From Candidatus Onstottus arcticum (GTDB taxonomy: Bacteria > Acidobacteriota > Blastocatellia > UBA7656), in assembly GCA_038040485.1 (NCBI GenBank), contig JBBPIE010000013.1:84209-148208 (forward strand): a stretch of 64,000 nucleotides of DNA, written 5' to 3'. The notes below the pieces were generated by a model. The model was not told where the DNA came from. It searched no databases and saw only the letters and a program-made list of their open reading frames with translations. How positions within the stretch are numbered: the first letter of the stretch is position 1; each line of letters opens with the position of its first letter. Below are positions 6,490 through 47,120 of this stretch, piece after piece. The translations under genes and the position numbers were made by a program.

Positions 6490-9117
6490 ATGACGATGTC
6501 GGAAGCTCAGCGCGGCTCACCTTACCTGGGTCTCATACCATACGACGAACAAGACGCGCCCTTCTTCTTTGGGCGCGAGAAAGAGACGCGGATCATCACG
6601 GCTAACTTGTTCGCCTCGCGGCTGACGCTGTTGTATGGCGCGAGCGGAGTCGGCAAGTCGTCGGTCCTGCGGGCTGGCGTCGTCCACCAATTGCGCCCAC
6701 GCAAAGACGTCCTTGCAGTGGTGTTCAGCGACTGGCAGAACGACCCGCTCACGAAGCTCAAGACCGCGGTTGCTAAGGCATCGTCGGACGCCACCGACAA
6801 GAGTGATCCGCTGCCGGATTCCTCATCGCTGGCCGAATACCTGGCAGGGTACAGCGCAAGACTCAATGGCCGCTTGATGATCATCCTCGATCAGTTCGAG
6901 GAGTATTTCCTCTATCACGCGCAACAGGACAGTCAAGGCACGTTCGACGTCGAGTTTCCGCGCGCGGTCAATCGCCCGGGCTTGCGTGTCAATTTTCTCA
7001 TCTCCATACGCCAGGATGCCTTGGCGGAATTGGATCGTCGTTTCAAAGGGCGCATCACCAATCTCTTCAACAACCGCCTGGAAGTCAAACACCTCAGCCG
7101 CGAAGCAGCAAAAGCAGCAATTGAGAAACCCATAGATGAATACAATAGCCGTTACGTGACAGAAGGCGAGGAGTTCAGCATCGAACCGGATTTGGTCAAC
7201 GAGGTTCTGATCGAGCTTCAGGAGGACGGCGCCTCTCAAGCACCTCACAAGCAAGTTGACTTCAGGAGCGGGAAACGCGAAGCGCTCATTGTAACCCCCT
7301 ACCTGCAACTGCTAATGGCCCGCATATGGGAGAAGGAAATAGAAAACAACTCGCGCGTCCTGCGGTTGAAGACGCTAAAGGGCCTCGAAGGTTTGCGGAA
7401 CATAGTTCAGGTTTACTTGAACAATGCAATGGATGCGCTATCTCCCAGGGAGCGAGAGATCGCGGCGGATATGTTCGACTACCTGGTCACTCCATCGGGG
7501 ACAAAGATCGCATACATGGCATCCGATCTGGCCATAAAGACCAAGAGCGGGCCGGAGCAGCTTAAGCCCGTGATGGATAAACTCTCCACCGATTTTCGTA
7601 TTTTGCGCTCAGTAGACCCGCCGCTCGACCGACCAAACGAGTTACGTTATGAGGTGTACCACGACGTGCTTGCGGTTGCGGTTTTAATTTGGCAAGAGGA
7701 ATACCGGCGGAACCAGGTGGATGCCGAAGCCAAGAAGAAGGCGAAAGAACAACAGCGCCAAGCCGAGGAGAAAGCAAGGGCTGAAGAGCAAGCAAAGGCT
7801 AACGCAATCCTGCGGCGATGGCTTTGGGCGCTGGCGTTCATGACTCTGTTGGCGATGAGCGCTTCGGTGATCGCGTATAAGCAATCCAGGAATGCACGTG
7901 CTAGTGAGCAGAAGGCGCTGGATGCTCAGAAGAACGCCGAGGAAAAACGGGAGTCGGCACTTCAGGTGCTCAGATTTTATGACGATGTCATACCTGTTTC
8001 CGATGGCTTGCTTTATGGAGGCAATCAGCGGGTGACCTTGGATCGGCTGGAAAGATCGCTGCAAGAGCATAAAGATAAGGGCAACCTCAGCGGAGAAGGA
8101 ATAACGCTCGCCAAGATCGGTGACTTTTACCATTTGCTCAACAAGGATACCGCGGCGCAGGAGTACTATGAACGCGCCTTGCCGATCTTAGAGAATGTTC
8201 TTGGAAAGGATCATCTTTACGTAGCCACCATCCTGGATAAATTGGCGACAGTTTACCTCAATCAGGGCAACTCGCTGAACTACTCCAAAGCTGAGCCGCT
8301 TGAAGAGAGGGCATTAATGATTCTGAAGCAAGCCCTGGGAGCGGAGAATGTCGACGTAGCCACTGCGCGCAACAATCTGGGGCTCATCTACCTCAACTGG
8401 GGCAAGTACGCCGAGGCCGAGCCGCTTTTCAACGAGGCAATCGATATTGACCTGAGGATTCATGGGAAAAACGATGTTGAGGTAGCCAATGGCCGAAACA
8501 ACCTGGCCCTGCTCTACCTCAAGCAGGGCAGGTATGCAGAGGCCCAGTCTCAGTTTGAGCAGGCACTCGACATCTGGAAGAAGAATCTAGGCGAGGAGAA
8601 TACGACTGTAGCGGATGGTCTCACCAACCTGGCTGAGGTCTACCGCAAACAGGGGCAGTACATTGAAGCGGAGCCGCGCGCAAGAAGAGCATTTGAGATT
8701 TGGGAGAAGCAAGCCTCGGCGCCCGACGATCCCGATTTGGCTCAAAGCTTAAACATCCTGGGAATGATCTATAGCGATGAAGGTAGATTCTCCGAAGCCG
8801 GGCCGCGTCTCAAACGAGCCTTAGCGATCCGTGAGAAAGCTCTTGGGCTCGAACATGAAAAGCTGGCAATCAGCCTCAACGCGCTGGCAGTGCTTTCTTA
8901 CAGGCAAGGCAAGAACGCCGAAGCAGAGCAGTTTTTCAAGAGAGCCCTCAAGATTCGCGAGAGCGCGCTGGGGCCAGATCATCCCGATGTGGCGGAGACC
9001 CTTCGAGACTATGCGACGCTGCTGCGCTCGAGCGGTAGGGAAGCTGAAGCTGCAGTCATGGACGCCCGTGCAGAAGCCATCCGGACCCGGCACGCAGAAG
9101 AGAATCGAAGAAACTGA
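6490..9117 (+). CDS. nSTAND-type P-loop NTPase with an internal TM helix, a charged coiled-coil and C-terminal TPR repeats
   Basis: N-terminal SPYLGLIPYDEQDAPFFFGREKE motif followed by Walker A GASGVGKSSVLRAG; K/E/A-rich segment, hydrophobic helix WLWALAFMTLLAMSASVIAY, then at least six TPR_10/12-like repeats; 30-bp gap after the SIR2 gene. Confidence 0.75.
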   Translation: MTMSEAQRGSPYLGLIPYDEQDAPFFFGREKETRIITANLFASRLTLLYGASGVGKSSVLRAGVVHQLRPRKDVLAVVFSDWQNDPLTKLKTAVAKASSDATDKSDPLPDSSSLAEYLAGYSARLNGRLMIILDQFEEYFLYHAQQDSQGTFDVEFPRAVNRPGLRVNFLISIRQDALAELDRRFKGRITNLFNNRLEVKHLSREAAKAAIEKPIDEYNSRYVTEGEEFSIEPDLVNEVLIELQEDGASQAPHKQVDFRSGKREALIVTPYLQLLMARIWEKEIENNSRVLRLKTLKGLEGLRNIVQVYLNNAMDALSPREREIAADMFDYLVTPSGTKIAYMASDLAIKTKSGPEQLKPVMDKLSTDFRILRSVDPPLDRPNELRYEVYHDVLAVAVLIWQEEYRRNQVDAEAKKKAKEQQRQAEEKARAEEQAKANAILRRWLWALAFMTLLAMSASVIAYKQSRNARASEQKALDAQKNAEEKRESALQVLRFYDDVIPVSDGLLYGGNQRVTLDRLERSLQEHKDKGNLSGEGITLAKIGDFYHLLNKDTAAQEYYERALPILENVLGKDHLYVATILDKLATVYLNQGNSLNYSKAEPLEERALMILKQALGAENVDVATARNNLGLIYLNWGKYAEAEPLFNEAIDIDLRIHGKNDVEVANGRNNLALLYLKQGRYAEAQSQFEQALDIWKKNLGEENTTVADGLTNLAEVYRKQGQYIEAEPRARRAFEIWEKQASAPDDPDLAQSLNILGMIYSDEGRFSEAGPRLKRALAIREKALGLEHEKLAISLNALAVLSYRQGKNAEAEQFFKRALKIRESALGPDHPDVAETLRDYATLLRSSGREAEAAVMDARAEAIRTRHAEENRRN

Positions 9118-9144: not shown

Positions 9145-10149
9145 TTAAGGGATTGTCGGGGGCGGCACCTGGATTAATGGCTTCTCCCCCCCTCCGCAGC
9201 CGATGATACAGAAGGTCCCGAAAGCAATGGCTGCCACTACCAGAAGTTTGTTTCGCGGTGTCCAAAATCCCGGAATCGTAATATGCCCGGTCCATCGTGG
9301 AACAGTTGAGCCTGGAGCATTCGCAGTGATGTCCGACGAGTTTGGCGAGCCGCCAGCAGTGAATGTTACGGTAACCACCCCTTCAATATCGTCAGTCGGT
9401 CTTGTGATACTCTGTGACCCGATTTTGCCGATGTTCTTTTTGACGGTTATCAGGACCGGTTGGCCGCGCACCGGCTTGCCATTGCAGGTGTACTGCAAGT
9501 TGATATTTTGAGCGGTCCCGCGTTGCACTCTAAGGCGGTCGGGCGCCGGTCCGGTTACGCGCCGATTACCGTCGATTGTTACTGAACGGATCGCGCAATT
9601 GATCTGGCTTGATTCAGCCTCGAGTCTTACCGTGCCGCTCCCAGCGTCGATTACCGGGTGACCGTTCCGAACCGCAATGCGAAAGCTTGCTCCGCTGGAG
9701 GATGTGTACGCAGAGCCGCAAGTCTCGATGTAGGCGATGGCCTCTTGCTGTAGTTTGACCATCATATCCCCGACGAGGAGCGTGGCGATCAGGACGGGGC
9801 GTTGAGGATCATCCGTGGGCATAGTCAATTGCGTTGCGAGCCTCACTACTGCGCCTGGTGTGAGTCTGACCTGGCCGATTGAGTCCAGCATCACACACGC
9901 TGTTGAATCGTCGGACGCTCGCAGCAACTCGCCGCCCCAGATCGGCTGCTCCCCATAAGCCGCGCGGCCGTTGATCGATATCTCGCCTAGTGAATAGACC
10001 TTGCCGATAGGAGCGAACGCGACGGCACGAACCCGAAATGGTTTGCCAATGCTGAGGTCGTCTGCGCGAGCCACTCCACTCGCACTAAGGCTCACGATCA
10101 ACGTCGCAACCGAGACCAGCCGAGATAATCGAAGACGCTGTTTCGTCAT
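9145..10149 (-). CDS. Secreted protein with FecR-like domain and C-terminal hydrophobic segment
   Basis: Signal peptide; GE.L...DDSTA.V.LDS.G.VRL.PGAVVRL pattern resembles the FecR domain; 4-bp overlap with the upstream vWA gene. Confidence 0.4.
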   Translation of the reverse strand: MTKQRLRLSRLVSVATLIVSLSASGVARADDLSIGKPFRVRAVAFAPIGKVYSLGEISINGRAAYGEQPIWGGELLRASDDSTACVMLDSIGQVRLTPGAVVRLATQLTMPTDDPQRPVLIATLLVGDMMVKLQQEAIAYIETCGSAYTSSSGASFRIAVRNGHPVIDAGSGTVRLEAESSQINCAIRSVTIDGNRRVTGPAPDRLRVQRGTAQNINLQYTCNGKPVRGQPVLITVKKNIGKIGSQSITRPTDDIEGVVTVTFTAGGSPNSSDITANAPGSTVPRWTGHITIPGFWTPRNKLLVVAAIAFGTFCIIGCGGGEKPLIQVPPPTIP

Positions 10150-13061
10150 CTCCGTTTCCCCTTTCGCTCCGCGGCCCCTCGCAAATTGCTGCCTGATCCG
10201 CCAGTTCCGGTAAGAGTTCCTCCAGGGTCAGGTGCTCCGATACTGCCGGCTGGATTCATGCGCTTCAGCGGTGGCAAAACAAGCGTCGTGTCAGATGTTT
10301 GGCGAACCGCCTGATTGTTGGCTTGACCGCAAGGGAACTCACAGCACGTAGCAGTGTTGTCCTGTCCCTTGCCACGAACTGTCACCTTAACAAACCTGGT
10401 CTTGGGGTGCTCATTCGCGTTCGAGAACCTCTGGATAACCTTTAAGCTCTGGCCCGCTCGTTTTGTCGCAGCCGTCGGAGGCGGTGGATTGACGGCTTGC
10501 GTGATCACGCCCGCAAGGGATGCAGTGTCATTGTCTACCGGAACCGTTATGCACTTTCCATTGTCAACGAATGCGAATGCGAAAACCGCTTCCACAATAT
10601 CCAACGGATTAGAGTCAAAGACGTAGAAGGTGACTTCGAATATGTCACCCGAACGAGTCAGTGTCGGAGCCGGATGATCTTGCGTCCCATCTGAATTGAT
10701 CAGAATTACCTGCGGCACTATGTGGGCGAGAATGTTGAGCGAAACTTCCCCGGCATCACTGCTGAATTTGAGCCTGCCCTGAATGAATTCCGGCAAAAGA
10801 AGTTTTGGCGAAGAGGTAAACCCGGGGACGAATCCGGGAATGGCAGGCTTGAATGTTAAGTCAAACGTCTGCGTATCGCCTGGCGCAATTTCCATTGGAA
10901 ACTCTTTTTGCGGACCTTGAGGCACAACGGAGAAAACCCCGCTCTTGTCTTTTTTCTCCTTGTTGCCCACCATTCGGAAGAGCTTGAAGTCCAAGTTGGC
11001 AAGCAAGACACAGCCGGTATTCGTGATCGTAAATGACAACGATCGACTTTCGCCCACATTGATGTCTCTAAAGTTAAGGGAGCTCGTGCTCAACACCGCT
11101 TTTGCGGAACCAGAGCAGATGGTTAGTTCCGATGTGTTTCCGTTCGAGTCTGTGAGGGTGGCTGTGTAGAAGCCGCTCGGAGAAACCGGCAGCCCGCTTG
11201 CGCTGAAACTGTTGCCGACAAGAGGCGCGCTGCCAAGGAAGATCACATTATCCAGAACAACTTTGTCCGTCGTACGTCTGAGATTGGCAGCGAATATCTC
11301 GACCGTCCCGCCACCAAGAGGAGGGCTGTTGATTTGACCTGCTATCGTCACCGTTGCAATAGCGGCGTTTCCATTGGAAGCATTCTGTACAACAACGGTG
11401 TCCGGGAAATTAAGGAGCGTGTTAGGCCCTTCATCCGCGTCTCCAACATCGTTGAGAGTTGGTCCGTCGCAAACGCTCGCAGGCTCGTTCGCCGGGAAAG
11501 GCTCGGAGCTGCCCAGGTCGATCGGAGTTTCGCTACCGGAAATATCGTTCATCGAGATCGTGTTTCCAACGTTGTGAGTTACGGCGTTGAATACACCGGG
11601 CCGTGGATCGAGCACACAGATACCTGCCTGGATGTTGTTCTCGAGTTTGTTGAGCTCGATCCGATTGAATCCCGTGTTATCGGAGGGGCAGACCGGCTGG
11701 ATGACAATTCCTGCGTGAAGGAACCCTGTGATTCTTAGGCCGCGCACGACGTCGCGGTTGGAGCGGATCATTATTCCATCGTCGAGTTGGAACTGCCCAT
11801 CAATCGACACCCTCCGATCACAAACGATCGCCTCGTCTTGCGATGTCTCCGCGCAAGTCACCTTAACCGGGATTGAAGGCGCGCAACCTGCTGCGCACCC
11901 GCAGATGGTGATGTCGGGCGCGGTGAGCGGAGGCAACGGTTGGCTCGGACGGATCGTCATCCCGGAGCTGAACGTTATTGTTGTGCGTCCGCCGTTGGCG
12001 TTTGCCGTCTCGATCGCCTGGCGCAGTGAACGTGGGCTTCCCTCCACGAACGGGGTACCTGGAGCGGTATCAGCAGTGGTAGCCACAGTGAGGCTGCGCA
12101 ACGCGATGTTGCCCCTGAGCGCCCTCCGAACGAAGTCCGCAAATTGTTTCACCTGACATCCGCACTCCTCCTCAAAGGTCGCCGTGTCGACTACACTGTG
12201 TTTCGTTTTGGGTTTGTTGCACTCGGTTGGGACGATGACCTCTACTACGCCGGGTAGATCGGCGGGCGGAGAGGGGAAGGCTAAACGTTCGACGAGTAGT
12301 TTGGCATCTTCGAGCTCTTTGGTCTCGGTCGGAACGCCAATTAAGATCACGTCCAGCTCGGCCTCACCTGCCCTTACGCGCGCTAACTGGGATGCCAGGA
12401 CGCCGTTAACACGGTCGTCGTCATTGTTGCTAGGCTCGCCGTCGGTTGACAGGATGAACACACGGCGAGCGCCTGAACCTGCAACCTGGTCGGCTTGCGA
12501 GATCGCTTTGCCGAAGTCAGTCTCGCCGGCTGGGCACGGGGGGATGTTGCTGTCGAGATCCGGACAAACCACCAGCGGTTTGATCCGGTCGGCTGCGGAC
12601 ATGGCATCCGCGTCTGAGCCTATCCGCGGCGTGAGGGGCAGGATGATCGAAGCCTCGCCATCGAACAGTACCGCGCCCACCGAAACCGAGCCGTCGCGAG
12701 GTATCACTGAAGGGTCGAGCAGCGCGCGCCGTACTCCCTCGATTTCAACGTTGTAGGTTTGCCCTCGCCCATCGCTGCTGGTGCCCTCGTGCGGACCCTC
12801 GATCTTGTTTTGCATGCTTCCCGAGCGGTCGATGATGAAGACAAGATTGGTAAGCGCTTGCGTGTCCGGACAGTCTGGAGGTTGCTCCGCTGCATGATAC
12901 CCACCGAGCCGCGGGCCCATCATCGTCACCGCGAGCCCCATCGAGATTGACAATCCAACGCAAGCGATCAATCGAAAACCTCGCAACTTGTTTCGCGTGC
13001 GACCGCGGCTTGTTTGCGCCTGTGGCAAGGCGCCGGCGATCGGGGAATCGAGCATACTCAT
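10146..13061 (-). CDS. Large secreted vWA-domain protein with parallel beta-helix-like repeats and C-terminal beta-sandwich domains
   Basis: MIDAS motif LVFIIDRSGSMQ; N-terminal TM/signal; GIVI, NRIELN..AGICV and NTISMNDISG repeats suggest a beta-helix. Start placed at ATG 13061 (MSMLDS), which has a GAGGAGG Shine-Dalgarno 8 nt upstream; the ORF track extends to 13244. Confidence 0.7.
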   Translation of the reverse strand: MSMLDSPIAGALPQAQTSRGRTRNKLRGFRLIACVGLSISMGLAVTMMGPRLGGYHAAEQPPDCPDTQALTNLVFIIDRSGSMQNKIEGPHEGTSSDGRGQTYNVEIEGVRRALLDPSVIPRDGSVSVGAVLFDGEASIILPLTPRIGSDADAMSAADRIKPLVVCPDLDSNIPPCPAGETDFGKAISQADQVAGSGARRVFILSTDGEPSNNDDDRVNGVLASQLARVRAGEAELDVILIGVPTETKELEDAKLLVERLAFPSPPADLPGVVEVIVPTECNKPKTKHSVVDTATFEEECGCQVKQFADFVRRALRGNIALRSLTVATTADTAPGTPFVEGSPRSLRQAIETANANGGRTTITFSSGMTIRPSQPLPPLTAPDITICGCAAGCAPSIPVKVTCAETSQDEAIVCDRRVSIDGQFQLDDGIMIRSNRDVVRGLRITGFLHAGIVIQPVCPSDNTGFNRIELNKLENNIQAGICVLDPRPGVFNAVTHNVGNTISMNDISGSETPIDLGSSEPFPANEPASVCDGPTLNDVGDADEGPNTLLNFPDTVVVQNASNGNAAIATVTIAGQINSPPLGGGTVEIFAANLRRTTDKVVLDNVIFLGSAPLVGNSFSASGLPVSPSGFYTATLTDSNGNTSELTICSGSAKAVLSTSSLNFRDINVGESRSLSFTITNTGCVLLANLDFKLFRMVGNKEKKDKSGVFSVVPQGPQKEFPMEIAPGDTQTFDLTFKPAIPGFVPGFTSSPKLLLPEFIQGRLKFSSDAGEVSLNILAHIVPQVILINSDGTQDHPAPTLTRSGDIFEVTFYVFDSNPLDIVEAVFAFAFVDNGKCITVPVDNDTASLAGVITQAVNPPPPTAATKRAGQSLKVIQRFSNANEHPKTRFVKVTVRGKGQDNTATCCEFPCGQANNQAVRQTSDTTLVLPPLKRMNPAGSIGAPDPGGTLTGTGGSGSNLRGAAERKGKRR

Positions 13062-13787
13062 AATCCAAGCCTCCTCAGTTGAACTGCGTGGGCTGATGCG
13101 ACTATAGGGACCGTCCCGGGACTCGGCTATGCGCATCACCAAAGCAACGCAGTTGTCAAACGAAGCACTCCTGCCTTTGACGCAAAGGCAAACCGTCAGC
13201 TTTGTAACTGTGCCTATCCTTAATTGACGAAATCTGCCGGGCAATCAATGCAAATACCCGCGCGGAAGCGGGACCTCCCCAGGGACGTGCGCGACGACCG
13301 GTCCATTTGGAGTGGGCAGGGCCGCTCCTCGAGGAAGGACCAAAAAACGCGCGTCGTCTTCCAGTGCACCGCGGGCAACGCAACTTGTCGGCTCGCGCGA
13401 AAAGCTGACGCGCACCCAAGATTGGTTTTGACCTTGCGACCGCAAAACACCTCAGGTATACTCGCGACCTCACGTATCAAAAGGAGTTAAGCCGTCGACT
13501 ATTATCCAAGCTCGGTCGCGAACGATAAGCCAGAAGCCTAAGCAAATTCACTTTGATTATTAAATCGATCGACTTTGAGTTATTATGCCGTTGATTCTGT
13601 ATTCGCAGCGCAGGAAGCCTCGAAGGGCAACCCCCTTGCAAATCATTTTCTGAGCCAACCGACATTTCGCCGCAGGCTCGCCGGCTGATGTTGGGATGAA
13701 GATACGCTCGTTCAGTCTTGCCTCGCACGGTCCGCAACGCAGCACCCGAGACCGTGCGCATTAGAGAAACTAGAGGTTCCCTTCGTT

Positions 13788-16700
13788 ATGGTTCGTGGGT
13801 TCTTCCTGACTGCCATCGCATTGCTGCTTTTCACAACGCCTAATGCGTTCGGCTCCGCTATTGCCGGCCGAGCGGCGGAGGCTGCGCCTTACACACTTGT
13901 GCTCGTCGATGGCAGCTCGAATGCGGAACTTGCCGCGGCGCGCGATTTTATCGTCGCACAGGGCGGCACGATCGCCGTTGTACTTCCGCCGCACGCGATA
14001 CTGGGATGGGTTTCAGCGGAGACGGGCGCGCGGATTCTTGGCAAGCACGGTATCAAGTCGATTCACCGCACCGTGGTGGACCAACGCTCAGCCGGCTTTT
14101 CGGATCGCGAGACCCAGACCGCGATTGGTCTGTTTAACGACATCGTCTCGGGACGGCGCGCGCGCCAGGCCAAGCGAGAAGCAAAAAAACTCTCCGCAAA
14201 GGCACTCCCGGGTCTGACCGACTGCGCGCAGCCGCATCCGGCCATTAACAAGGATGACTTTATTCGCAACCTTCGGCTGATGGGCGCGGAAGACTCAATC
14301 AAGGGAATCCAGTCGACCGTCACGCCTCAGTTCTTCTCCAACAGCGATTCCATGGACGGAACAGTCGCGGTCGCCGTCTTTTTGATCGAGAGCACCGGCG
14401 AGATCGATCCCAATACTTACTCTTGGAGCCAAGCCGATCAGACCACCGCAATCGCGCAAGTCCTCGACGGCCTGAACTGGTGGGTCGAGCAATCAAGGGC
14501 GTTCAACCTCGCCCGCCCGCTTCAGTTTACGTTGGTTCAATACACGGCTTCGAATCCAGCTTGCCAGCAGCCATACGAACCCATCTTGCACCCCGGCCGC
14601 GATGCGAATCTGTGGATAGATCGAATCATGAACAACGTTGGAGCAACGGGGGGTGATACGTTTGTGAAGGTCGCCGCCTTTGATCAACGGCTGAGAGACG
14701 AGAACCGAACCAACTGGGCTTACTCGATGTTTATCGCGTACAACCCGCCCCCGGCGCCGGCGGCTTTCACAGACGGGCGAGCTTCCTGGGCGTACATTGG
14801 CGGCCCGCACGTGAATTCGCTGTTTCGAAGCTTCGGCTGGCCGCTCTCGCGAATTGCTAGTCACGAAGCCGGACACATCTTTTTCGCGTGCGACGAGTAC
14901 TTTCAACCAGGATACCAAACCTGTAGCTGCACCTGTGCGCCTGAGTTGAGACCTGACGCGCTCAACGGCAATTGCCAGGATGCGGCGTGCGGACTCAATT
15001 CTACCGGGTGCATGATGCGGCTCAATGAGTTGTCGCTCTGTCCGTTCACCGTAGCGCAGATCGGATGGACCGGCGCGGTTCCCAAACCCGCGCCGACTGC
15101 TCCTGTAGGAGTCGTCGCAACCGGGTCCTCACCCTCGCAAGTGAACTTGATCTGGTTAGACACATCGACCGTCGAAGACGGATTCCAGATAGAGCGGCGC
15201 GGCGGATCGACCGCCGAGTTCAGCCAGGTCGGCGTTGTAAGCGGTAACACCGTAAGCTTCGCCGACTCCGGCGTGTTGGCGAACACAGCGTACGCCTATC
15301 GAATTCGCGCCTTCAACAACGCGGGCTCTTCACCTTACTCGAATGAAGCCGCGGTAGTGACGCCGTCAAGCCCCTCGGCGCTGTCAATCGCCACAACCAG
15401 CCTGCCGGACGCAACTGTTGGAGTGAGCTACAGCCGGACGCTAGTGGCAAGCGGAGGGCGGCCGGAATACGCATGGCTGGTCGAGAGCGGCGCGCTGCCG
15501 CCGGGGCTTTCGATGTCGCAATCTGGCGGCATCTCGGGCACTCCGTCCACGGGCGGCACCTTCAACTTCTCTTTGCGAGTGACTGACGCCAACGGCGGCT
15601 CGGCTGCAAAAGCGCTTACGCTGGTGGTCAAGCCGGCAGCACCCCTAAGCATCACTTCCACCCAGCTTCCCAAAGCCTCGGTCGGCGCTACCTACAGCCA
15701 GAATCTGGGCGCCTCCGGAGGACAAACTCCTTACACATGGTCGATCCAGTCAGGGAATCTGCCTGAGGGAATGACGCTCAACCAAATCGGGGTGATTTCA
15801 GGAACACCCGAGCGGTCCGGCTCTGCGAGCTTCGTCTTGAGGCTTACTGACGCGACCGCCTCAAGCGTCTCAGCCACACTCTCGATCATCATCAACCCGT
15901 CGGCCTTAATCCTGAACCTGAATACCGCGTCCTTGCCCGACGCAATCGTCGGGCAAGACTATTCACAAACGCTCAATGCAGAGGGTGGCGATCCACCCTA
16001 TCGATTTGAGATCACGAGCGGGCGACTGCCCGAAGGCTTGCGGCTATCGAGTACGGGGGTGGTCTCCGGGAAGCCCACCGCACCCGGCGAGGTCGAGTTC
16101 GACCTTCGCGTCGCTGATCAGAGCGGACAGTCTGTGGCCAAGTCTCTATCGATAGACGTCGATCCGCCCCCTCAGTTCACCATACTGAGTCCGAGCCTCC
16201 TCCCTGTTGCGGCAGTGGGCGTTCCCTATCGACTCGAGTTCAAAGCAACTGCCGGGGCGCCGCCCTATGAATGGATCAAGAAGAAGAAGAAAAAGAAGTT
16301 TGGAGTCTTGCCCGACGGCTTGACGCTTTCAAAAGACGGAGTGTTGTCCGGCACACCGACAACACAGGGTACTTTTAATTTCACCTTGCGAGCGTTCGAC
16401 GCCAACGAAAAACTGGCGTCCAGTCCGTTCACTATTGAGGTTGGTCCGCCTCCGCCTCCGTTGGCGATAAGAACCGAAGCCCTTCCGCAGGCGCTGCAGG
16501 GCCTTCCCTATTCGGCGGCCCTCGAAGCGTTTGGAGGCATAGGTCCTTACACCTGGGAGATTGAAAGCGGAGCCGTGCCTGCCGGCTTAGTCATGAGCGC
16601 TCAGGGCGTTATCTCCGGGACAGCGGCATCGGCCGGCGTAGGAACTTTTACAGTTCGAGCCAAAGATACGCTTGGCACTTCGACTGTAAAATCGCTGTTC

Positions 16701-20732: not shown

Positions 20733-20966
20733 TGCTGGCTTAGGTCTTCACCAATTTGCAAACGAACTGAGATTGAGTATAGGACCGGCTTACTGGCTGC
20801 GCAATGATTGTCTGGGGAGAGGAGGCTTGCGGTTGCCGCGCCGAATGCTCCAAGGTGATTGCGGCCTCTCAGGCAACCGGATATTCTTCTGACGCTCGCG
20901 AGCCCTTGGATTGTCGTTCGCGTTCCGAGAGAGGAAGCTCATTCCGGCTTGCATTCGATTCGAGCG

Positions 20967-31797: not shown

Positions 31798-32277
31798 CTA
31801 TTGACCAGATAGCTTCGCCTTCACCAGATCGCTGAGCGCTTTTCCATCGACTGTTTTTCCTTCAAGCTTCGAGCGTACGACCTTCATCATTGCGCCCATG
31901 TCTTTCATGGAAGCCGCGCCGGTCTCCGCTATGGCCTGTACAACCGCAGCGGTCATTTCTTCTTCGCTTGCCGAAGCAGGAAGGTAAGTCTGAATGATCC
32001 GCGCTTCGTTTTCTTCCTTGACGGCAAGGTCTTCCCGGTTGGCTGCTCTGTACTGTTCGGCCGCGTCACGCCGCTGCTTCAAGATCGTGTTCAGCACGCG
32101 CGCCGCTTCGGTGTCATCGACTCCCGCGGGCAGCTCGGACTGGCGCATCGTAAGCGCAGTCTTCACCATTCGAAGCGCGCTGAGCCGCTCTGCTTCTTTC
32201 GCTTTCATCGCCTCGATGATGTCGCGGCTGATTTGTTCAACGATCGGCATGTGCCGGCGCCTCGCTTTGGGATTCAA
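31798..32277 (-). CDS. yqeY: GatB/YqeY-domain protein
   Basis: Collinear match to the GatB/YqeY family. Confidence 0.75.
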   Translation of the reverse strand: MNPKARRRHMPIVEQISRDIIEAMKAKEAERLSALRMVKTALTMRQSELPAGVDDTEAARVLNTILKQRRDAAEQYRAANREDLAVKEENEARIIQTYLPASASEEEMTAAVVQAIAETGAASMKDMGAMMKVVRSKLEGKTVDGKALSDLVKAKLSGQ

Positions 32278-32813: not shown

Positions 32814-34145
32814 CTAATCTATCGAACGCGGTTCGGCTGCGTCCAAGTATCCTTGTTCCGCTTGTAGACGAACGTCGCCGAAGTCCTCAGGCCACGCGCC
32901 GAATGCGCCTGCTTCATCGAGGGTCGAGCTTGTAATCCTGGTGGTGCCATCAGCTATTCGGCTGAACCAGTGAAGCGCGACTGAGTTCCCCGCGAGTTCG
33001 CCCTCTGCCACAAGGGTTTGAATACCTAGTATGAGAAGCTCACTGTGCGTTTCAGCAACCACTCGCACTCCTCGATTCGCTGCGCTTGCGAGCACTTGAG
33101 CCATCGCCGACTGTGCCCGAGGGTGAAGATGGGTTTCGGGCTGCTCGATGTAGACGAGTTGGCCTGGCCCTGCTGCATGAAGTGCCACAAGAACAGGAAG
33201 AGTTTGGGAAACACCAAAGCCCACATCAGCAATGTTCACCAAATCACGCGCTCCGCCTCTGGCAACGACGGGAAGTCGTCCAACTTGGAGTTCTACCTTT
33301 GTATCGTCTGTCCGCTTTGCGCTCACCTTCCGGGTTAGTCCGAGCAAAGCCAAGTCCTTACCGAGAGCATTAAGCCGAGACTCGTCGCGCTCATCCTGCC
33401 AGCGTGCGATAACACTCGCAGCATATTTTTCGAACGTTCCTGGGAACAAGGGGCCAGCCGCTGCAACCGGATAGGTTCTTTCTGGATTCCCGCGCAAGCC
33501 CGGTAGATGAGTCAGACGAATCAACGAATCCTCCAGCCAGTCGGCGTAAGAGAGGCGGAGGAAATTATTGGATCCCGCAGTTCCAACCTCGAGAAAAAAC
33601 CGGTTACGGGTGATGGCTAATGGCACTTTCAGTCTTGTGAGGAAGACCTGGTTGAATATCTGTTGAGACGCGGAGGGGGTTGGCAGCGATCTAATTTCAC
33701 GATCGGCCATTCGTGGGGAAAGCGTGACTTCCTCTTGTCCGGCAGTGTAGGTTGCAGACTGGATCGCAACCCCTCTTTTAGCATCCCGTTCAAAAGTCGT
33801 GCAGAACCTTCGCCCATCGTCGATTTCAACCTCGATACGAAATGACTTGGCGAGACTCTCGCTATTCCGCGAGAAAAGCTGTACGGCGGAGTTGAATCTG
33901 ACGTTCGGACCGTCCAGAAGAAGCGGGCCCGGGTCGTAGGTGGCCTCTAGTGTTTGCTTCAACAAGAGTAGCGGTTGCATGATGCTCGATTTTCCCGAGC
34001 TGTTCGCCCCCGCCAGAATAGTAAGCGGCTTGATGTCGATGTGCTGTGGTGTGCTGATGGACTTAAAACCGCCGACGGTGATCCGAGTGATTACTCCTTC
34101 ATTGCCCGTCGTGCCGGTTCGATGGCTTTTGGACCGTTTGGCCAT
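32814..34145 (-). CDS. AAA_21/AAA_15-type (ABC/OLD-like) ATPase
   Basis: Walker A GANSSGKSS; Q-loop, signature and Walker B region LVYIEQPETHLHP; H-loop ETHS; short C-terminal domain similar to DUF3696. Confidence 0.65.
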   Translation of the reverse strand: MAKRSKSHRTGTTGNEGVITRITVGGFKSISTPQHIDIKPLTILAGANSSGKSSIMQPLLLLKQTLEATYDPGPLLLDGPNVRFNSAVQLFSRNSESLAKSFRIEVEIDDGRRFCTTFERDAKRGVAIQSATYTAGQEEVTLSPRMADREIRSLPTPSASQQIFNQVFLTRLKVPLAITRNRFFLEVGTAGSNNFLRLSYADWLEDSLIRLTHLPGLRGNPERTYPVAAAGPLFPGTFEKYAASVIARWQDERDESRLNALGKDLALLGLTRKVSAKRTDDTKVELQVGRLPVVARGGARDLVNIADVGFGVSQTLPVLVALHAAGPGQLVYIEQPETHLHPRAQSAMAQVLASAANRGVRVVAETHSELLILGIQTLVAEGELAGNSVALHWFSRIADGTTRITSSTLDEAGAFGAWPEDFGDVRLQAEQGYLDAAEPRSID

Positions 34146-39136: not shown

Positions 39137-40123
39137 TTGGTTGAAGTGCTAAAGACGTTAGACAAATACATCGTCGAAGAACCAGCTCCGAGCGGTTGGC
39201 TGCAATCGGTTGGCGCGCGCGCCGGCCGCGATCCCCGCTTCAACAAACTGCTGGCGTTTTCGCTGATCGCGCACGTCCTCTTTTACGCTGCATTGATCAA
39301 GCTCGACTCTTGGGCTATTCAACGGGCAATCGCTCAAGGCAAGCGCCAACCCGAGCTTGTTCAGCTCATCGAACTTGCGCCGCCGCGCGACCAGGTGCCG
39401 CTTCGAACCGCCCCCGAGCCGCTGGAACGCGCGGACGTCAATCACCTTCGTTTTGATCCCAAAACGGCGAATGATCTTCAGTTGCTGGCGCGCTCTCCCA
39501 AACCATCCGAGCAGAAAGGCGCGCACGGCAAGCTCCCATCCGCCGATCAAATCGAACGCCGGATGCGAGCCGCGCGTGGAGCGGCCGGCCGCGAGTCGGC
39601 GCCATCAAACTCATCCGGCCAGGCTACGGCGACTTCAGGACTTCAAGCCGGCGGCGTCGCTCAACCCGAACCGGTGACTCAGTCGCCTTCGCCGCAGCCT
39701 GCGCCCGTCACTCCCGCTGCGCCGAAGCTCGATCCGAATGCGGGTGTCATCGGCCCGCGCGAGCAGGCTTCGTCGGGCACGCACCGGGGCGAGAGTTCTC
39801 AGTCGACCGCGCTTGCGCTCCAGGCAGCCGAAGGCCAGTACATGGCTTACGTGCGAGCCAAGATCCGAAAAGCGAACGAGCGCATCATGCCGCGCGACTG
39901 GATAAAAGACATGCTGAGCGACAAGGTCTCGGCGGACTTTTCGGTTGTGGTCAGGCGCGATGGCAACATCCTGTCGACTCGGCTGCTTCGTTCGACTGGC
40001 TACTCAGTTCTTGACGATTCCGCAAGACAAGCTATATTTACAGCGAGCCCCTACGAGGGTTTTCCGCAGGACGCAGGCAACTCCCTCATCTTCACCATAA
40101 CGGTTTACTTCTTCACGTTGTAA
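39137..40123 (+). CDS. TonB-like energy transducer (N-terminal TM anchor, Pro/Ala-rich linker, C-terminal TonB_C-like domain)
   Basis: Domain order and composition; start codon uncertain (TTG at 39137). Confidence 0.4.
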   Translation: MVEVLKTLDKYIVEEPAPSGWLQSVGARAGRDPRFNKLLAFSLIAHVLFYAALIKLDSWAIQRAIAQGKRQPELVQLIELAPPRDQVPLRTAPEPLERADVNHLRFDPKTANDLQLLARSPKPSEQKGAHGKLPSADQIERRMRAARGAAGRESAPSNSSGQATATSGLQAGGVAQPEPVTQSPSPQPAPVTPAAPKLDPNAGVIGPREQASSGTHRGESSQSTALALQAAEGQYMAYVRAKIRKANERIMPRDWIKDMLSDKVSADFSVVVRRDGNILSTRLLRSTGYSVLDDSARQAIFTASPYEGFPQDAGNSLIFTITVYFFTL

Positions 40124-42971: not shown

Positions 42972-45900
42972 CTATTGCCCGCTGGGAAGCGTGGGCCACA
43001 ACCTCACCGAGCCGTCTTTCGTGCTGGTAATCATTATGCGATTGTCTGGCGAAAACGCGATCGAATCAAGCGCCTGTTTTGCAGGCTCACTATAGAGCGT
43101 GACCAGCCTGCGATAAGACGCGGTACTCCACAACGTGACCTGTCCGCCGATGTCTCCCGTGGCGAGGACTTTGGAGTCCGCGGAAAACGCCATGCAGGAG
43201 ATGGAACTCTGAAGACCGCCGAGCCAGGCGAGCGGCCCGCCAGGTTCAAGATGTTCCATATCCCACAATTCTACAGATGGGCCGAGCTTCGTATTGCCGG
43301 ATATCGCAAGGAATCTGCCGTCGAGCGAAAAAGTTGCGAGTAATGTGGCGCCTCCTCCCACAGCGAAAGGGCCCTTGAATTGTCTCGGTGCGCCCTGTGC
43401 GTCCGGAGCATTCCTTCCCGAAGCCTTCACCAGAGTCATAATGAGCTGTCGAGAGCGAGCATCCCACATCTCAGCGGTCAATCCATAATCTTCGCTTGAC
43501 CCTATGACAACCATTTTGGAGCTGTCGGGCGAAAAGACTAGCGAGTGAACCGAGAGGATATGAGCATTGTCCAGGGTCGATGCTGTTTTAGAAGCGATAT
43601 CCCACAACTCCACTTTTCCCTTAGTATCAGCGTCGTCAAAACAGGCGAGTGTCTTTCCATCAGGCGAAAACTCCATACCAGATACCTTGCCGCTGTCAGT
43701 CGGAGCTTTAAGAACGAAGGGCTGATCCTGCAAATCTTCGTTCCACAACTCCAAGCCCCATCCGGTGTGGACGCTGTTGTCGTTTTCTTTCGTTTCGATC
43801 CAGTTAAGCGCGACTACGTTCTTTCCATCAGGTGAGACTACGAGCTCCCTAACAGCTTTTCGGCCCTTCTCAGGCGGATTAACGTTGAAAGTGGCCGTCA
43901 ACTTTAGCGGCTGAGTTTGCCATAGTTTTATCGTGCTGGCGCTGCTCAGAATCGCGACAAATCGTCCGCCAGGAGAGTTGCCGACAGTGGGATAGGGTTG
44001 CGCAAACTCAGCGGAAAGTTTCAATTCTTGCCGCGACTCAGCGTCCCACATCCTGACTTGGGCTGTTTCCCTCGTGCCGTCGGTTATGAAGCGTCCCGTG
44101 TCATAGCGAGCGAGCATCAAAACCGACTTACTGTCCGGTAAGATGAAGGGGGTTTTGATGCCTCTATCGCCGCTTTCGACGGCGACGGAATCTCGGGGAT
44201 TGCGCGTGTTCCAGAGTCTCACCTTTCCGGCATCGTTTGCTGCCAACTTCTCTCCGTCGGGAGAAAAGGTTAACGAGGTTATCCAGCCCTCTTGTCCCAA
44301 GAGCGGAGCTATCAACTCAGGAGACTCTCGCTCCCCGGGTCGTGGCGCTTTATATAGCCGCAATGTGTTATGGCCGCCAATGGCAAACTTGTTTCCCTGA
44401 GGAGCGAAAGCCATCACGGTAGGCGAGAATTCCGGAGCGGCAAGAGCATCCGCGAATCCTACCGCGGCCAACGGATCCTTCATCTTTGTGTCAAACACTA
44501 TGAAGCTGTTTCCGATATTAGTCCCCAGGATGATTGTTTTACCATCGGGTGAAAACCTCACTGACTCCCCACCCCCTGGGCTATCCAGGGAAAGCCGTCC
44601 CGAATCGACGTCGAAGAGCCGCAGCGTGCCGTCCCAGCCGACTGTAGCGAGCGTCTTTTCATCGGGCGACAGCGCAAGGTCAATTACGCTTCCTGTGACG
44701 CCAGCAATCTCCATCCGTTTCTTCGACGTTGCAAGATTCCACGCCACAACGCGACCCTCATTGCTGATCTCTCTCGCGCTGCCCGTAAAGAGCGTCTTCC
44801 CGTCGCGCGAGAAGACAAGCGAGGTGATCCGCAAACCATCTCCCGGAAGCACCGCAGGGGCTTCGGTTGACGTGAGTTTGTGCAACATCACCCGCGAGTC
44901 GCCGCTGCAGGCCAGAATGCTGCCGTCGGGCGAGACCGCCAAAACGTTAACAGGAACACCTCCGGTTGGAAGAGTTCTCAACTCTTGCATGGTTGAAGCG
45001 TCCCAGAGCTTGACCGCATGGTCGCCTGCGGTTGCCAGATACTTTCCGTCGGGAGAAAAAACCACGTCTCTTACAATTCCATCGCCGCAGTCCAGCGTTC
45101 CCGCTTCCCTGTGATAAAGCCAGTTTAGATAGCCCCACTCGAAGCTGCGCAAATCCTCCTGATTGGTCGAAGGATCTTCAAGCAACTCCCGCGCGTGCTG
45201 GACGTTCTCGTCGTAGTAAGCCTCCTGCGCGAGATTGATATTCGCCGCGTAAAGCAACTTGCGCGACCGCTCGCCTTCTGCCCTGGCCCTGGCTTCTCCT
45301 TCTTCGGCTCTCTTTTTTTCTCTCCCTGCTTCTGCCGCCGCCGATTCAGCCTTCTCTTCATTATCCTTTGCGATGCGCGCCTGGTAGCCGGCCTGCTCCT
45401 CTGCAAGACCCGCTGCTACTGAGTTCTGATAAGCAGTATCGGCCGCCTTCTCAGCGTTATTCCGCTCCTTATCGGCCCTGTCTCGCTGCTCATTGGCTTC
45501 CACCAAAGCGGCCTCAAGTTGCTGCTTTGATTCATTCGCCTCGACTCTTTTGCTGTTTGCGAAAACAAGCGCACCGAGCGATAAAAGGAACGCGAGAGCG
45601 AAAATGAGAGCTGTCAATCGCGTTCGCTTAATCTCTTTCCTGCGCTGCGCTTCACGGTCGCGCGCTTCTTTGTCGCGCGCCTCGCGGCTTTCGTCCAGGA
45701 AATTCATCGCCGCTTCAAACTCCGGATAATAACGACGCGCCCACGTCTTGTTAGGCTTGCTTCCATCGCGCCAATCCAGCGCAAGCTGCAAATCAGGGTC
45801 GCGATATAATCCCGCTTCTCCCTTCTCGTGCAAGACCGATGTTTCGGCCAGTCGGCGATAGATGCGGGCGGACCGCGCTTCTTCATCGACCCACGCTTTC

Positions 45901-47120
45901 AATCGTTCCCAGTTGCGAATCAAGCTCTCGTGCGAAATGTCTACAAGCGAGTCCACGTTGAGCGGAGTCCCGGCGGGCGGCATAAGAAACGATCTGTCTT
46001 CACGGCGAAAGACTTCGATGACGGCGATCACTTCCGCTTCGCTTGCCTCAGCCAGCGCGCAAAGCTCCTTCAATTCAATCGGGCGGCGTATCTCCCGGTT
46101 GTCCGACCCCTTCTCGGTGAGACCTTTGAATATCTTTTCGGCAATCGCGCCGCTCCGCTCGCCCTTCAGATCGTTGTAAGCTTCATCGGCATGACGAGAA
46201 AGCGCCGCGCTCATCTCTCCTATCGCCTCGTAGTGCTGAAGGTCGATAGGCTCTCTGTCTTGATTCTCTTCCTTCCATCTATTCCACGTTCGCATGAGCG
46301 CGTGCTGAAGGATGGGCAATTGATCGGGATTGTCTCCCATGTCATTCAGCAGCCGATTGACCAGGCGCGGCGCGATGCCGGCTCCGCAGACGGCAGCCGG
46401 TCCCGTGATGGCTTCTCGCCGCTGATCGCGCGTGAGCCGCGGAATCAAGTACTGTCCTTCGTTGATGGCTTCGGGCAGGTCCCAGAACAACGAACAGTCG
46501 CCCAGAAAATCAGAGCGCATTGTTAGCACTACATAAATCGGAACGTCTCTTTGGCGCGCTGCTTCCAGCAACAGCTTAACGAAGGCTGCCGCTTCGTTCT
46601 GGTATCGCTCGCTTGCGGCGACCTGCGCAAAGCGAAACAACTCTTCAAACTGGTCAACTACGACGAGCAGGTGTTCGTGAAGACCGATCTGCGCGAGGCG
46701 AACAGCTTCGACAAGGCCGAGGCTGCCGCGTCGCAAGGTTGACTCGATCATCGTCGCCTGAACTGGCGCGGTTCCGCCGCCTGGAGAGCCGAACAGGCCC
46801 GACTCGTCGATTGCGCGGGCGAGGTTGCCAATCGGATCGTTGCTCGGCCTCAGGATTGCGATTCGCCAATCCGAATCCGCGCTCGTCATGAACCCGCCAA
46901 ACAGCGCGGGCAGCAATCCCGCGCGCACGAGCGATGACTTGCCGCTTCCCGAAGTGCCAACCACAGCCATAAAGCGCGTGCTGACGAGCTTGCGAAGCAA
47001 CTGCTCGCTTTGGCCATCGCGCCCGAAATACAACAGGCTTTCTTGAAACTCGAATGGCCGCAAGCCGGGAAAGGGATTAGAAGGGGTTTCCGTTTGCGTC
47101 ATCATGTAGTCGGCTATCAT
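42972..47120 (-). CDS. nSTAND-type P-loop NTPase with an internal TM helix, a long coiled-coil and a C-terminal WD40 beta-propeller (at least 14 repeats)
   Basis: N-terminal NPFPGLRPFEFQESLLYFGRDGQ motif and Walker A GTSGSGKSSLVRAG; hydrophobic helix LTALIFALAFLLSLGALVFA flanked by R/K/E-rich segments; multiple WD40 repeats (SPDGK.LA..G.D..v.LWD). Confidence 0.8.
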   Translation of the reverse strand: MIADYMMTQTETPSNPFPGLRPFEFQESLLYFGRDGQSEQLLRKLVSTRFMAVVGTSGSGKSSLVRAGLLPALFGGFMTSADSDWRIAILRPSNDPIGNLARAIDESGLFGSPGGGTAPVQATMIESTLRRGSLGLVEAVRLAQIGLHEHLLVVVDQFEELFRFAQVAASERYQNEAAAFVKLLLEAARQRDVPIYVVLTMRSDFLGDCSLFWDLPEAINEGQYLIPRLTRDQRREAITGPAAVCGAGIAPRLVNRLLNDMGDNPDQLPILQHALMRTWNRWKEENQDREPIDLQHYEAIGEMSAALSRHADEAYNDLKGERSGAIAEKIFKGLTEKGSDNREIRRPIELKELCALAEASEAEVIAVIEVFRREDRSFLMPPAGTPLNVDSLVDISHESLIRNWERLKAWVDEEARSARIYRRLAETSVLHEKGEAGLYRDPDLQLALDWRDGSKPNKTWARRYYPEFEAAMNFLDESREARDKEARDREAQRRKEIKRTRLTALIFALAFLLSLGALVFANSKRVEANESKQQLEAALVEANEQRDRADKERNNAEKAADTAYQNSVAAGLAEEQAGYQARIAKDNEEKAESAAAEAGREKKRAEEGEARARAEGERSRKLLYAANINLAQEAYYDENVQHARELLEDPSTNQEDLRSFEWGYLNWLYHREAGTLDCGDGIVRDVVFSPDGKYLATAGDHAVKLWDASTMQELRTLPTGGVPVNVLAVSPDGSILACSGDSRVMLHKLTSTEAPAVLPGDGLRITSLVFSRDGKTLFTGSAREISNEGRVVAWNLATSKKRMEIAGVTGSVIDLALSPDEKTLATVGWDGTLRLFDVDSGRLSLDSPGGGESVRFSPDGKTIILGTNIGNSFIVFDTKMKDPLAAVGFADALAAPEFSPTVMAFAPQGNKFAIGGHNTLRLYKAPRPGERESPELIAPLLGQEGWITSLTFSPDGEKLAANDAGKVRLWNTRNPRDSVAVESGDRGIKTPFILPDSKSVLMLARYDTGRFITDGTRETAQVRMWDAESRQELKLSAEFAQPYPTVGNSPGGRFVAILSSASTIKLWQTQPLKLTATFNVNPPEKGRKAVRELVVSPDGKNVVALNWIETKENDNSVHTGWGLELWNEDLQDQPFVLKAPTDSGKVSGMEFSPDGKTLACFDDADTKGKVELWDIASKTASTLDNAHILSVHSLVFSPDSSKMVVIGSSEDYGLTAEMWDARSRQLIMTLVKASGRNAPDAQGAPRQFKGPFAVGGGATLLATFSLDGRFLAISGNTKLGPSVELWDMEHLEPGGPLAWLGGLQSSISCMAFSADSKVLATGDIGGQVTLWSTASYRRLVTLYSEPAKQALDSIAFSPDNRIMITSTKDGSVRLWPTLPSGQ

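Follow-up and report, generated by a model that had tools for sequence, protein, structure and literature searches.

Two NADase–nSTAND1 gene pairs of Candidatus Onstottus arcticum and the predicted membrane-spanning layout of their STAND proteins

The question raised by this locus is on which side of the inner membrane the sensor of a STAND protein can work. Two gene pairs were found in a stretch of 64,000 nucleotides (nt) from Candidatus Onstottus arcticum (GenBank assembly GCA_038040485.1, contig JBBPIE010000013.1, positions 84,209 to 148,208), and this whole stretch is referred to here as the window. They form two separate modules, in each of which a gene for an effector of the nicotinamide adenine dinucleotide (NAD)-consuming type (NADase) is followed downstream by a gene for a STAND protein with an nSTAND1 NTPase. 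To our knowledge, every bacterial STAND/NLR-like immune sensor characterised to date (Avs, bNACHT) works in the cytoplasm, where it recognises phage proteins once the phage genome has entered. The STAND proteins of the window, however, each carry a hydrophobic segment between the NTPase and the C-terminal repeats, which an initial annotation of this DNA had read as a transmembrane (TM) helix, with the repeat sensor and the NTPase either on opposite sides of the membrane or merely tethered to it. Of these two options, the first is favoured by the charge bias around the segment and by the types of C-terminal domain that follow it in homologues.

The first module lies on the forward strand and comprises a SIR2 effector gene (5548-6459, 303 amino acids (aa), Pfam SIR2_2 E=3.9e-28) and, after a gap of 30 nt, the gene of its partner, an 875-aa STAND protein with TPR repeats (6490-9117, Pfam nSTAND1 at residues 11-429 and seven TPR_12 matches), hereafter the TPR protein. 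The second module lies on the reverse strand, where a TIR + DUF4062 (TIR-like) effector gene (47123-48685, 520 aa as the open reading frame (ORF) was called, Pfam TIR_2 E=9.9e-15 and DUF4062 E=1.7e-4) is followed after 2 nt by the gene of a 1382-aa STAND protein with WD40 repeats (42972-47120, Pfam nSTAND1 at residues 16-428, E=8.2e-98), hereafter the WD40 protein. The placement of SIR2 and TIR genes directly upstream of the STAND genes in the initial annotation was borne out by these matches and by the common direction of the genes in each pair. Both pairs end at convergent genes and the TIR pair starts at a divergent intergenic region, which suggests that each is an operon of two genes; when the two were scanned for promoters and terminators, the counts did not exceed those of shuffled sequences. 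The TPR protein is 100% identical to a database protein (P0121) annotated as belonging to an Acidobacteriota metagenome-assembled genome.

By sequence, both STAND proteins firmly belong to nSTAND1 (PF20703), with scores of 147.9 bits for the TPR protein and 328.9 bits for the WD40 protein against a Pfam cut-off of 27.1, while the NACHT model of Pfam reached only 18.6 bits, under its cut-off. The NTPase module of the TPR protein, predicted to be cytoplasmic, is encoded at 6520-7776 (residues 11-429, forward strand) and shows the N-terminal motif PYxGLxPY..FFGRE, a Walker A motif GASGVGKSS and a Walker B motif ILDQFEE; that of the WD40 protein, with the same predicted location, is encoded at 45837-47075 (residues 16-428, reverse strand) and carries GTSGSGKSS and VVVDQFEE. 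Walker A (GxxGxGKS) and Walker B (hhhhDQFEE) are thus intact in both proteins, and their columns are invariant in 61 and 77 homologues, the invariant positions of the WD40 protein (77 homologues) being G55, S57, G58, G60, K61, S62, S63, D156, Q157, F158, E159 and E160. By fold, the NTPase resembles ORC/Cdc6 and an archaeal STAND-like ATPase, and no solved structures related by sequence to the proteins were found. A search with the NTPase module alone retrieved 46,983 clusters (50% identity) with a threshold of E<=1e-3, and 11,397 when the threshold was tightened to E<=1e-30, and the same layout is carried by thousands of bacteria.

Relatives of the NTPase were also present on 182 records of a plasmid collection, 97 of them from Streptomyces (annotated as helix-turn-helix proteins) and others from Nostoc, Tolypothrix and Rhodococcus. 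In addition, a plasmid of Runella rosea (NZ_CP030852.1; L167:552-7198) encodes a 1063-aa nSTAND1 homologue of 40% identity, whose gene comes after those of a protein with a STAS domain, of an anti-sigma-factor antagonist and of an RsbW-like ATP-binding protein, with no NADase gene.

The hydrophobic segment lies at 7819-7878 in the TPR protein gene (forward strand, residues 444-463, WLWALAFMTLLAMSASVIAY) and at 45558-45617 in the WD40 protein gene (reverse strand, residues 502-521, LTALIFALAFLLSLGALVFA, within an uncharged stretch of residues 502-523). Both peptides sit where the initial annotation had placed them, and each is the single outlier segment between NTPase and repeats of its protein. 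The best 19-residue Kyte-Doolittle (KD) means were 1.86 for the TPR protein and 2.58 for the WD40 protein, with summed Hessa apparent free energies of -0.28 and -3.18 kcal/mol, whereas the next-best windows reached KD values of 1.05 and 1.51 and Hessa values of +10 and +8 kcal/mol. When a TM-like window was defined by KD>=1.6 and Hessa<=2, a single window passed in each STAND protein, and hydropathy revealed no other span or signal peptide. The uncharged stretch measures 20 aa in the TPR protein and 22 aa in the WD40 protein, close to the median of 23 among 304 homologues. A hydropathy scan of the upstream SIR2 and TIR proteins detected no hydrophobic segment, and both effectors should therefore be cytoplasmic.

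AlphaFold2 models built with family alignments, in which the NTPase and TPR domains were confident, placed the segment in long isolated helices. In the model of the TPR protein (mean predicted local distance difference test score, pLDDT, 88) it falls within a long helix (392-455/460-508) and itself has pLDDT <50; in that of residues 1-700 of the WD40 protein (mean pLDDT 84.6) it is part of one 169-residue helix (468-636), with a pLDDT of ~76-85 in the segment and the lowest confidence just after it, at residues 527-548. The flanking domains exceeded a pLDDT of 90, and the segment was unpacked against any domain in both models, which argues against a helix buried in a soluble core.

The initial annotation had also considered that homologues might lack the segment, and this was examined in four sets of relatives, which keep it. 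The first comprised 209 database homologues, all with an uninterrupted NTPase module and a tail of 120 aa or more; a single TM-like segment followed the NTPase in 183 of them, several in 12 and none in 14, four of the latter having borderline Gly-rich hydrophobic stretches. Exactly one segment, around residues 490-530, was present in 66 of 68 complete genes from reference genomes, some of them of cultured strains, that belong to Acidobacteriota, Bacteroidota, Cyanobacteria and Proteobacteria. In the subfamily of the TPR protein, 54 of 55 complete metagenome genes encode at least one segment (exactly one in 44). The fourth set consisted of 134 further cluster representatives (50% identity), of which ~130 have the segment. 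Across homologues, the segment is free to change in sequence but retains its position, its length and its charged borders, a pattern typical of a membrane anchor. A TM helix is thus the rule in these nSTAND1 subfamilies (~90-97%), and its description in the initial annotation as atypical stands in comparison with the characterised soluble STAND proteins (Avs, bNACHT), not within the subfamilies themselves. Variants with 2, 4 or 6 spans at the same position, in place of a soluble tail, were also observed. For instance, the SIR2-linked nSTAND1 proteins P0187 and P0223 (L166:4001-6166) and those of loci L098, L114, L136, L155 and L156 have 2, 4 or 6 spans after the NTPase, and in such variants the sensor may be an integral membrane domain.

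The flanks of the segment are rich in charged residues (33-49% D/E/K/R), in agreement with the K/R/E-rich borders initially described. The coiled coil of the initial annotation was confirmed in part, by a periodicity on one side. The pre-TM stretch is ~49% charged and has no heptad periodicity, whereas the post-TM helix shows a 7-residue periodicity compared with shuffles. In the WD40 protein this Ala/Glu/Lys/Arg-rich helix (45213-45557, reverse strand, residues 522-636) is 39% charged and 24% Ala, with an Ala periodicity of z = 4.3 (median z = 6 in its subfamily), and in the TPR protein (7879-8025, forward strand, residues 464-512; model helix 460-508) it is 33% charged, with z = 3.2-4.4 for Ala or hydrophobic residues. 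The pattern AxxxxxxA also appears in the family consensus, and this periodicity fits a coiled-coil-type stalk that, if fully helical, would be ~17 nm long in the WD40 protein and ~7 nm long in the TPR protein. Both stalks are predicted to be periplasmic, as are the sensors behind them: a TPR array at 8026-9114 (forward strand, residues 513-875), and a WD40 beta-propeller region at 42975-45098 (reverse strand, residues ~675-1382, WD40 and propeller Pfam families), whose location is taken from the family-wide topology evidence.

This topology evidence follows two independent lines, one from charges and one from C-terminal domains. In 304 single-span homologues, the 15-residue flanks contain on average 6.27 K+R on the N-terminal side versus 3.41 on the C-terminal side, and the N-terminal flank has more in 274 homologues, equally many in 22 and fewer in 8; the WD40 protein itself has 8 versus 3. 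The TM helix is kept in 23 of 23 homologues whose C-terminal domain is of an extracytoplasmic type (PG_binding_1, VanY, GH25 lysozyme, Amidase_2, Peptidase_M74, CAP, SPOR, muramidase, SH3_3, astacin, CarboxypepD_reg or FGE-sulfatase) and is missing in 6 of 6 that end in HisKA+HATPase_c, GAF+HD, pentapeptide+TIR or SIR2 (Fisher p = 1e-5, for sequences that are related and not independent). The host can be considered a diderm because the window contains a gene for a protein with a TonB C-terminal domain (39137-40123). Since the NTPase cannot function in the periplasm, a cytoplasmic NTPase with a periplasmic stalk and sensor is the sole sensible orientation, and this N-in/C-out topology is judged highly probable. 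Many WD40-type homologues, as seen in the post-TM tails of L001-L080, end in a conserved motif, C-x4-RN-x4-EW-x12-TC, whose two Cys could form a periplasmic disulfide; the WD40 protein of the window does not have this motif.

The initial annotation had explained the two modules as a paralogous duplication with swapped effectors and swapped sensors, and this could not be maintained. The NTPase modules of the TPR and WD40 proteins share 23% identity over ~310 residues, while their closest relatives in other organisms and phyla reach 56% and 73%, respectively. The two proteins are therefore members of two old subfamilies, each with its own fixed effector, and a recent duplication was ruled out. 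In the subfamily of the WD40 protein, the immediate upstream gene is co-directional in 64 of 64 genome loci and encodes a homologue of the TIR protein in 63 of them (350-570 aa, mostly 475-530 aa; TIR_2 match in 49/65 and DUF4062 match in 52/65). The one odd case, an apparent effector-STAND fusion in L077, was rejected as an ORF-calling artefact with an out-of-frame Arg/Pro-rich extension. In the subfamily of the TPR protein, a SIR2_2 domain is encoded directly upstream at every one of 66 loci, with a cyclase, TIR, CHAT or HTH domain added in a few. The same domain order with the same upstream effector thus recurs in public genomes.

This pairing does not depend on the sensor. For instance, an Amidase_2 variant is found with TIR-DUF4062, and CAP, six-span and TM-less histidine-kinase variants are found with SIR2. 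WD40 and TPR sensors are used by both subfamilies: in one, WD40 occurs in ~40 of 62 tails and TPR_12 in 20 of 62, and in the other WD40 occurs in 31 of 46. The combination of SIR2 with TPR and of TIR with WD40 in the window is therefore incidental, and the modular, diversifying character initially attributed to the system as a whole belongs to its sensor end and not to its effector end. In another locus (L161:1-6070), an nSTAND1-TM-VanY gene (P0072) lies directly downstream of an nSTAND1-WD40 gene on the same strand, a tandem arrangement suggesting that several membrane sensors may share one effector.

Regarding the effectors, the SIR2 protein possesses GSGAS, TTNYDD and HG motifs. Its SIR2 domain, and this domain only, matched ThsA-type SIR2 (E=1.6e-23), Dsr2 (E=3.5e-9) and PDC-S25 models of PADLOC, the match to the Dsr2 model of NCBIfam was far below cut-off, and no SLOG domain was found with Pfam or PADLOC. 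The TIR protein appears from its sequence to have three domains. The first contains the canonical TIR motifs FISYA and SEWCLRELDEF (SxWCxxE), with a putative catalytic Glu conserved in 36 of 65 orthologues. The middle domain is DUF4062-like; it scores 22.2 bits, under the Pfam cut-off of 24.7, but 52 of 65 orthologues match at E<=1e-3 (best 1e-9), and its S298-x-x-[D/E]301-x-Q303 positions are conserved in 61, 45 and 58 of 65. The third has TIR-like strand and Asp motifs. The TIR ORF as listed begins at a GTG. In orthologues the N-terminus lies ~5 residues ahead of the D-I-F-I-S-Y motif, and translation therefore probably begins at the ATG at 48607 (Met27), which would give 494 aa. DUF4062 has been described as a TIR-like NADase in the phage defence systems Swarozyc (bioRxiv 10.64898/2026.05.01.722283) and Evangelion (bioRxiv 10.64898/2026.06.25.731849).

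The order of the domains, the conservation of the hydrophobic helix, the bias in flanking charges, the association of the helix with C-terminal domain types and the fixed effector-NTPase pairing were all observed directly, and from them we infer membrane insertion and orientation in vivo, a direction of signalling, a kind of ligand, an activation of the NADase and an immune role. The product of the first gene would be a soluble cytoplasmic NAD-consuming effector (SIR2, or TIR + DUF4062), and that of the second a bitopic inner-membrane nSTAND1 protein with a ~430-aa cytoplasmic NTPase, a TM helix and a periplasmic stalk and repeat sensor. The sensor would bind a ligand that reports an event in the envelope, such as phage entry proteins, peptidoglycan damage or inter-bacterial attack, and the signal would travel through the stalk and the TM helix. 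NTP-dependent oligomerisation of the NTPase modules would then be released at the inner membrane face, and the oligomer would activate the co-encoded NADase, leading to NAD+ depletion and a growth stop (abortive infection or dormancy). Activation would presumably proceed by protein-protein contact and not by a nucleotide second messenger, because each NADase is paired with a membrane STAND protein. Taken as a whole, this proposal of a bitopic STAND receptor that couples envelope sensing to NAD-depleting immunity is considered moderately probable.

Several observations weigh against the proposal, and they are given here with the explanations that they favour. The first of these accepts the same topology and questions the immune role: the proteins could be receptors for envelope stress, development or kin recognition, with a NADase that tunes metabolism or dormancy. 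The partner-switching cluster on the Runella plasmid (STAS/anti-sigma antagonist/kinase) shows that related nSTAND1 proteins serve other signalling contexts, and some homologues have histidine-kinase or GAF-HD outputs. Both pairs of the window are flanked by housekeeping genes and not by a tight defence island. No PADLOC model matches the STAND proteins or the TIR partner, and the immune role is a prediction for the whole family. Such systems have also been tied to multicellular lifestyles (Kaur et al., PMC7159879). Nevertheless, the invariably linked partners SIR2 and TIR/DUF4062 have known bacterial roles in NAD+ depletion or phage-defence signalling, and conflict systems typically show what is seen here, an NTPase-effector core that stays the same while its sensors are extensively shuffled. 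The plasmid-borne relatives point in the same direction, as do two further defence genes of the window, one for a Type ISP restriction-modification enzyme and the other for an NsnB/AriA-like ATPase, and a non-immune receptor is regarded as unlikely.

Other observations concern the topology itself, for which the case is a prediction made wholly from hydropathy scales, charge bias and comparative genomics. The helix could act as a membrane tether or an oligomerisation device only, leaving NTPase and sensor together in the cytoplasm to sense phage proteins, as do Avs and bNACHT, whose sensors bind cytoplasmic phage proteins (PMC10907252). TM-less WD40 variants exist (P0201, P0204), and WD40 sensors of the family can therefore also work in the cytoplasm; one exceptional homologue (P0137) carries FHA-type domains, normally cytoplasmic, after the helix; and the flanks of the TPR protein are charge-neutral (K+R 4 versus 4), its orientation thus relying on the family. 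However, a hydrophobic stretch of 20-26 residues with charged borders would need a second span to bring its flanks to the same side, and none is present. The positive-inside bias is strong family-wide (274 versus 8), and the helix always accompanies peptidoglycan-binding or hydrolase, CAP and SPOR domains and never HisKA, GAF-HD, TIR or SIR2. A tether with a cytoplasmic sensor is consequently held to be quite improbable.

The direction of signalling could also be reversed, with the cytoplasmic NTPase acting as the sensor and the periplasmic C-terminal domain as an effector or targeting device, for instance a wall hydrolase that lyses the cell. Several homologues do end in potentially wall-lysing domains (GH25 lysozyme, Amidase_2, VanY, Peptidase_M74, muramidase). 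Nonetheless, the periplasmic part of the window proteins and of most of the family consists of WD40 or TPR repeats with no enzymatic domain, and a dedicated cytoplasmic effector gene is always present, also beside the Amidase_2 variant. The C-terminal repeats of STAND proteins (Apaf-1, MalT, Avs) are ligand sensors, as Leipe et al. reportedly described in 2004, and Amidase_2 has the PGRP fold of an animal peptidoglycan sensor, so that inside-out signalling seems very improbable. Finally, simple hydropathy scales do give false positives, but a buried helix of a soluble protein was ruled out as scarcely credible, as the modelled segment is unpacked with the lowest confidence in or next to it, its sequence varies while hydrophobicity, length and charged borders persist, 2, 4 and 6 TM variants occupy the same position, and it is lost exactly where the C-terminal domain is of a cytoplasmic type.

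Housekeeping genes (ribosomal protein S1, CTP synthase, ALAD, TonB, SpoIID) make up most of the surroundings of the two pairs and of the interval between them. The GC content of the pairs is slightly below that of their neighbours (0.54-0.57 versus 0.58-0.61), at best a weak hint of horizontal acquisition. The Type ISP restriction-modification enzyme is encoded at 20859-24044 on the forward strand (Type_ISP_C E=4e-100, coupler domain, N6_Mtase), and the segment at 22-24 kb was probably acquired horizontally because of its low GC content (0.487 versus ~0.57 for the window). An AAA_21/AAA_15 ATPase at 32814-34145 (reverse strand) matches the NsnB (E=6e-56), HEC-03B and AriA models of PADLOC and is followed by two small co-directional ORFs (32274-32810 and 31798-32277, reverse strand), the first with no PADLOC match; together they are possibly another defence module. 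Convergent to the TPR protein gene, there are two overlapping co-directional genes (9145-10149 and 10146-13244, reverse strand), one for a 1032-aa protein with VWA_2 and 'choice-of-anchor D' domains and the other for a 334-aa protein with no family match. In addition, the gene at 13788-18401 (forward strand) encodes 1537 aa, in which some ten He_PIG Ig-like repeats occur together with PKD- and fn3-like domains; its product is probably a large protein that is secreted or sits on the surface.

We know of no outside-in transmembrane signalling via a STAND NTPase in any kingdom. It is tentatively proposed that these operons represent a very large unrecognised class of transmembrane NLR-like receptors in diderms (~47,000 NTPase clusters), in which ectodomains of the WD40, TPR or peptidoglycan-binding type would monitor the periplasm or wall and, by way of a STAND oligomerisation switch, signal inward to NAD+-destroying enzymes. 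If so, they would be a bacterial counterpart of the outside-in innate receptors (Toll-like receptors, PGRP-LC), detecting an attack before the cytoplasm is reached. A periplasmic sensor would mean that NLR-type switches also serve outside-in signalling across a membrane, and that the ectodomains (WD40, TPR, PGRP-like amidase, PG_binding, SPOR, CAP, FGE/C-lectin) form a catalogue of envelope danger sensors. SIR2+nSTAND1 and TIR-DUF4062+nSTAND1, both very common operons, would join the candidate NAD-depletion defence systems; both types are found among phyla of soil and water (Acidobacteriota, Bacteroidota, Cyanobacteria) that are poorly covered by defence catalogues. The operon is present in cultured strains, in which the hypothesis can be put to a direct test. 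Judging from the searchable literature, the NTPase family and the effector chemistries were known, whereas the predicted membrane-spanning, outside-in layout with two conserved operon types seems to be new and to have been neither described nor tested.

No PADLOC model matched either STAND protein or the TIR partner beyond weak TPR/mad8 matches, and NCBIfam gave only sub-threshold similarities to FxsC_Nterm and FxSxx_TPR, for which reason an assignment to the FxSxx-COOH system was not adopted. The nSTAND1 clade was named by Kaur et al. (eLife 2021 PMC8195603) among bacterial 'conflict systems', and the settings described for it are mainly EACC1-caspase systems and proteins that begin with an effector-associated/Death-like adaptor domain (PMC7159879, PMC8195603). 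In general terms, the window proteins share with these systems the central STAND NTPase, the C-terminal WD40/TPR repeats and the association with TIR-type effectors. However, they have no N-terminal adaptor and their effector is a separate upstream gene. The EACC1 'membrane-associated two-gene system' (Kaur 2020, System 4), in which a 5' EACC1 gene with a single TM segment is joined to a 3' gene with a caspase, was also rejected, as the upstream SIR2 and TIR-DUF4062 genes encode no hydrophobic segment and the window proteins have no caspase/CHAT domain. Term searches of the texts of PMC7159879 and PMC8195603, figures aside, detected no mention of a TM span between nSTAND1 and repeats or of a periplasmic sensor, and term searches of the literature on nSTAND1/PF20703, STAND topology and DUF4062, which did not cover figures and supplementary tables, yielded no account of the topology.

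The Avs and bNACHT proteins combine a repeat sensor, a STAND oligomerisation switch and a cell-killing effector, in some cases SIR2 or TIR, within one soluble polypeptide of the cytoplasm that has the effector as its N-terminal part. The window proteins follow the same sensor-switch-effector logic but belong to the nSTAND1 clade and have a TM helix, a predicted periplasmic sensor and a separate effector gene. Their membership in Avs or bNACHT was rejected because there is no PADLOC model match, the NTPase starts at residue 11 or 16, so that there is no N-terminal effector, and the TM helix is present. With Thoeris and DSR the modules share matches of the SIR2 partner to ThsA- and Dsr2-type SIR2 models and a TIR partner with the canonical TIR motif. 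Unlike in Thoeris, there is neither SLOG nor ThsA/ThsB pairing, and each NADase is paired with a membrane STAND protein; this system was rejected, as the 303-aa SIR2 protein matches ThsA by its SIR2 part only and ~40 kb separates the operon of the SIR2 gene from that of the TIR gene. The match of the middle domain of the TIR partner to DUF4062 in 52 of 65 family members recalls Swarozyc and Evangelion. Here, however, DUF4062 shares a separate polypeptide with two other domains, a canonical TIR and a TIR-like third one, and the NTPase is nSTAND1 and not NACHT; the Swarozyc and Evangelion preprints make no mention of a transmembrane partner. The combination of DUF4062, a STAND NTPase and WD40 also echoes the eukaryotic DUF4062-NACHT-WD40 proteins TEP1 and NWD1/2.

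The nearest published statement of a periplasmic STAND sensor is that of Dore et al. (PNAS 2024, PMC10907252), who reported TM segments in some NACHT/nSTAND1 C-type-lectin proteins targeted by diversity-generating retroelements (DGRs) in multicellular bacteria, with some sensors predicted to be periplasmic. Those proteins are DGR targets with CLec domains from single genomes, and the study describes no family-wide single-TM rule, WD40/TPR sensors or fixed operon partners. Zorya likewise couples an envelope-anchored sensor to cytoplasmic effectors, through a MotAB-like motor unrelated in sequence and mechanism. A closer architectural parallel is offered by the kinases PknB and PknD and by Drosophila PGRP-LC, a type II single-pass protein, in which an N-terminal cytoplasmic module is joined by one TM helix to a C-terminal extracytoplasmic ligand-binding domain: a beta-propeller in PknD, PASTA peptidoglycan binders in PknB and an Amidase_2/PGRP domain in PGRP-LC. 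In the nSTAND1 proteins the cytoplasmic module is a STAND NTPase instead of a kinase or a RHIM motif, and the likeness is architectural only, with no kinship in sequence, but the predicted topology matches that of these receptors, and two homologues (P0066 and P0068) carry an Amidase_2 domain as PGRP-LC does.

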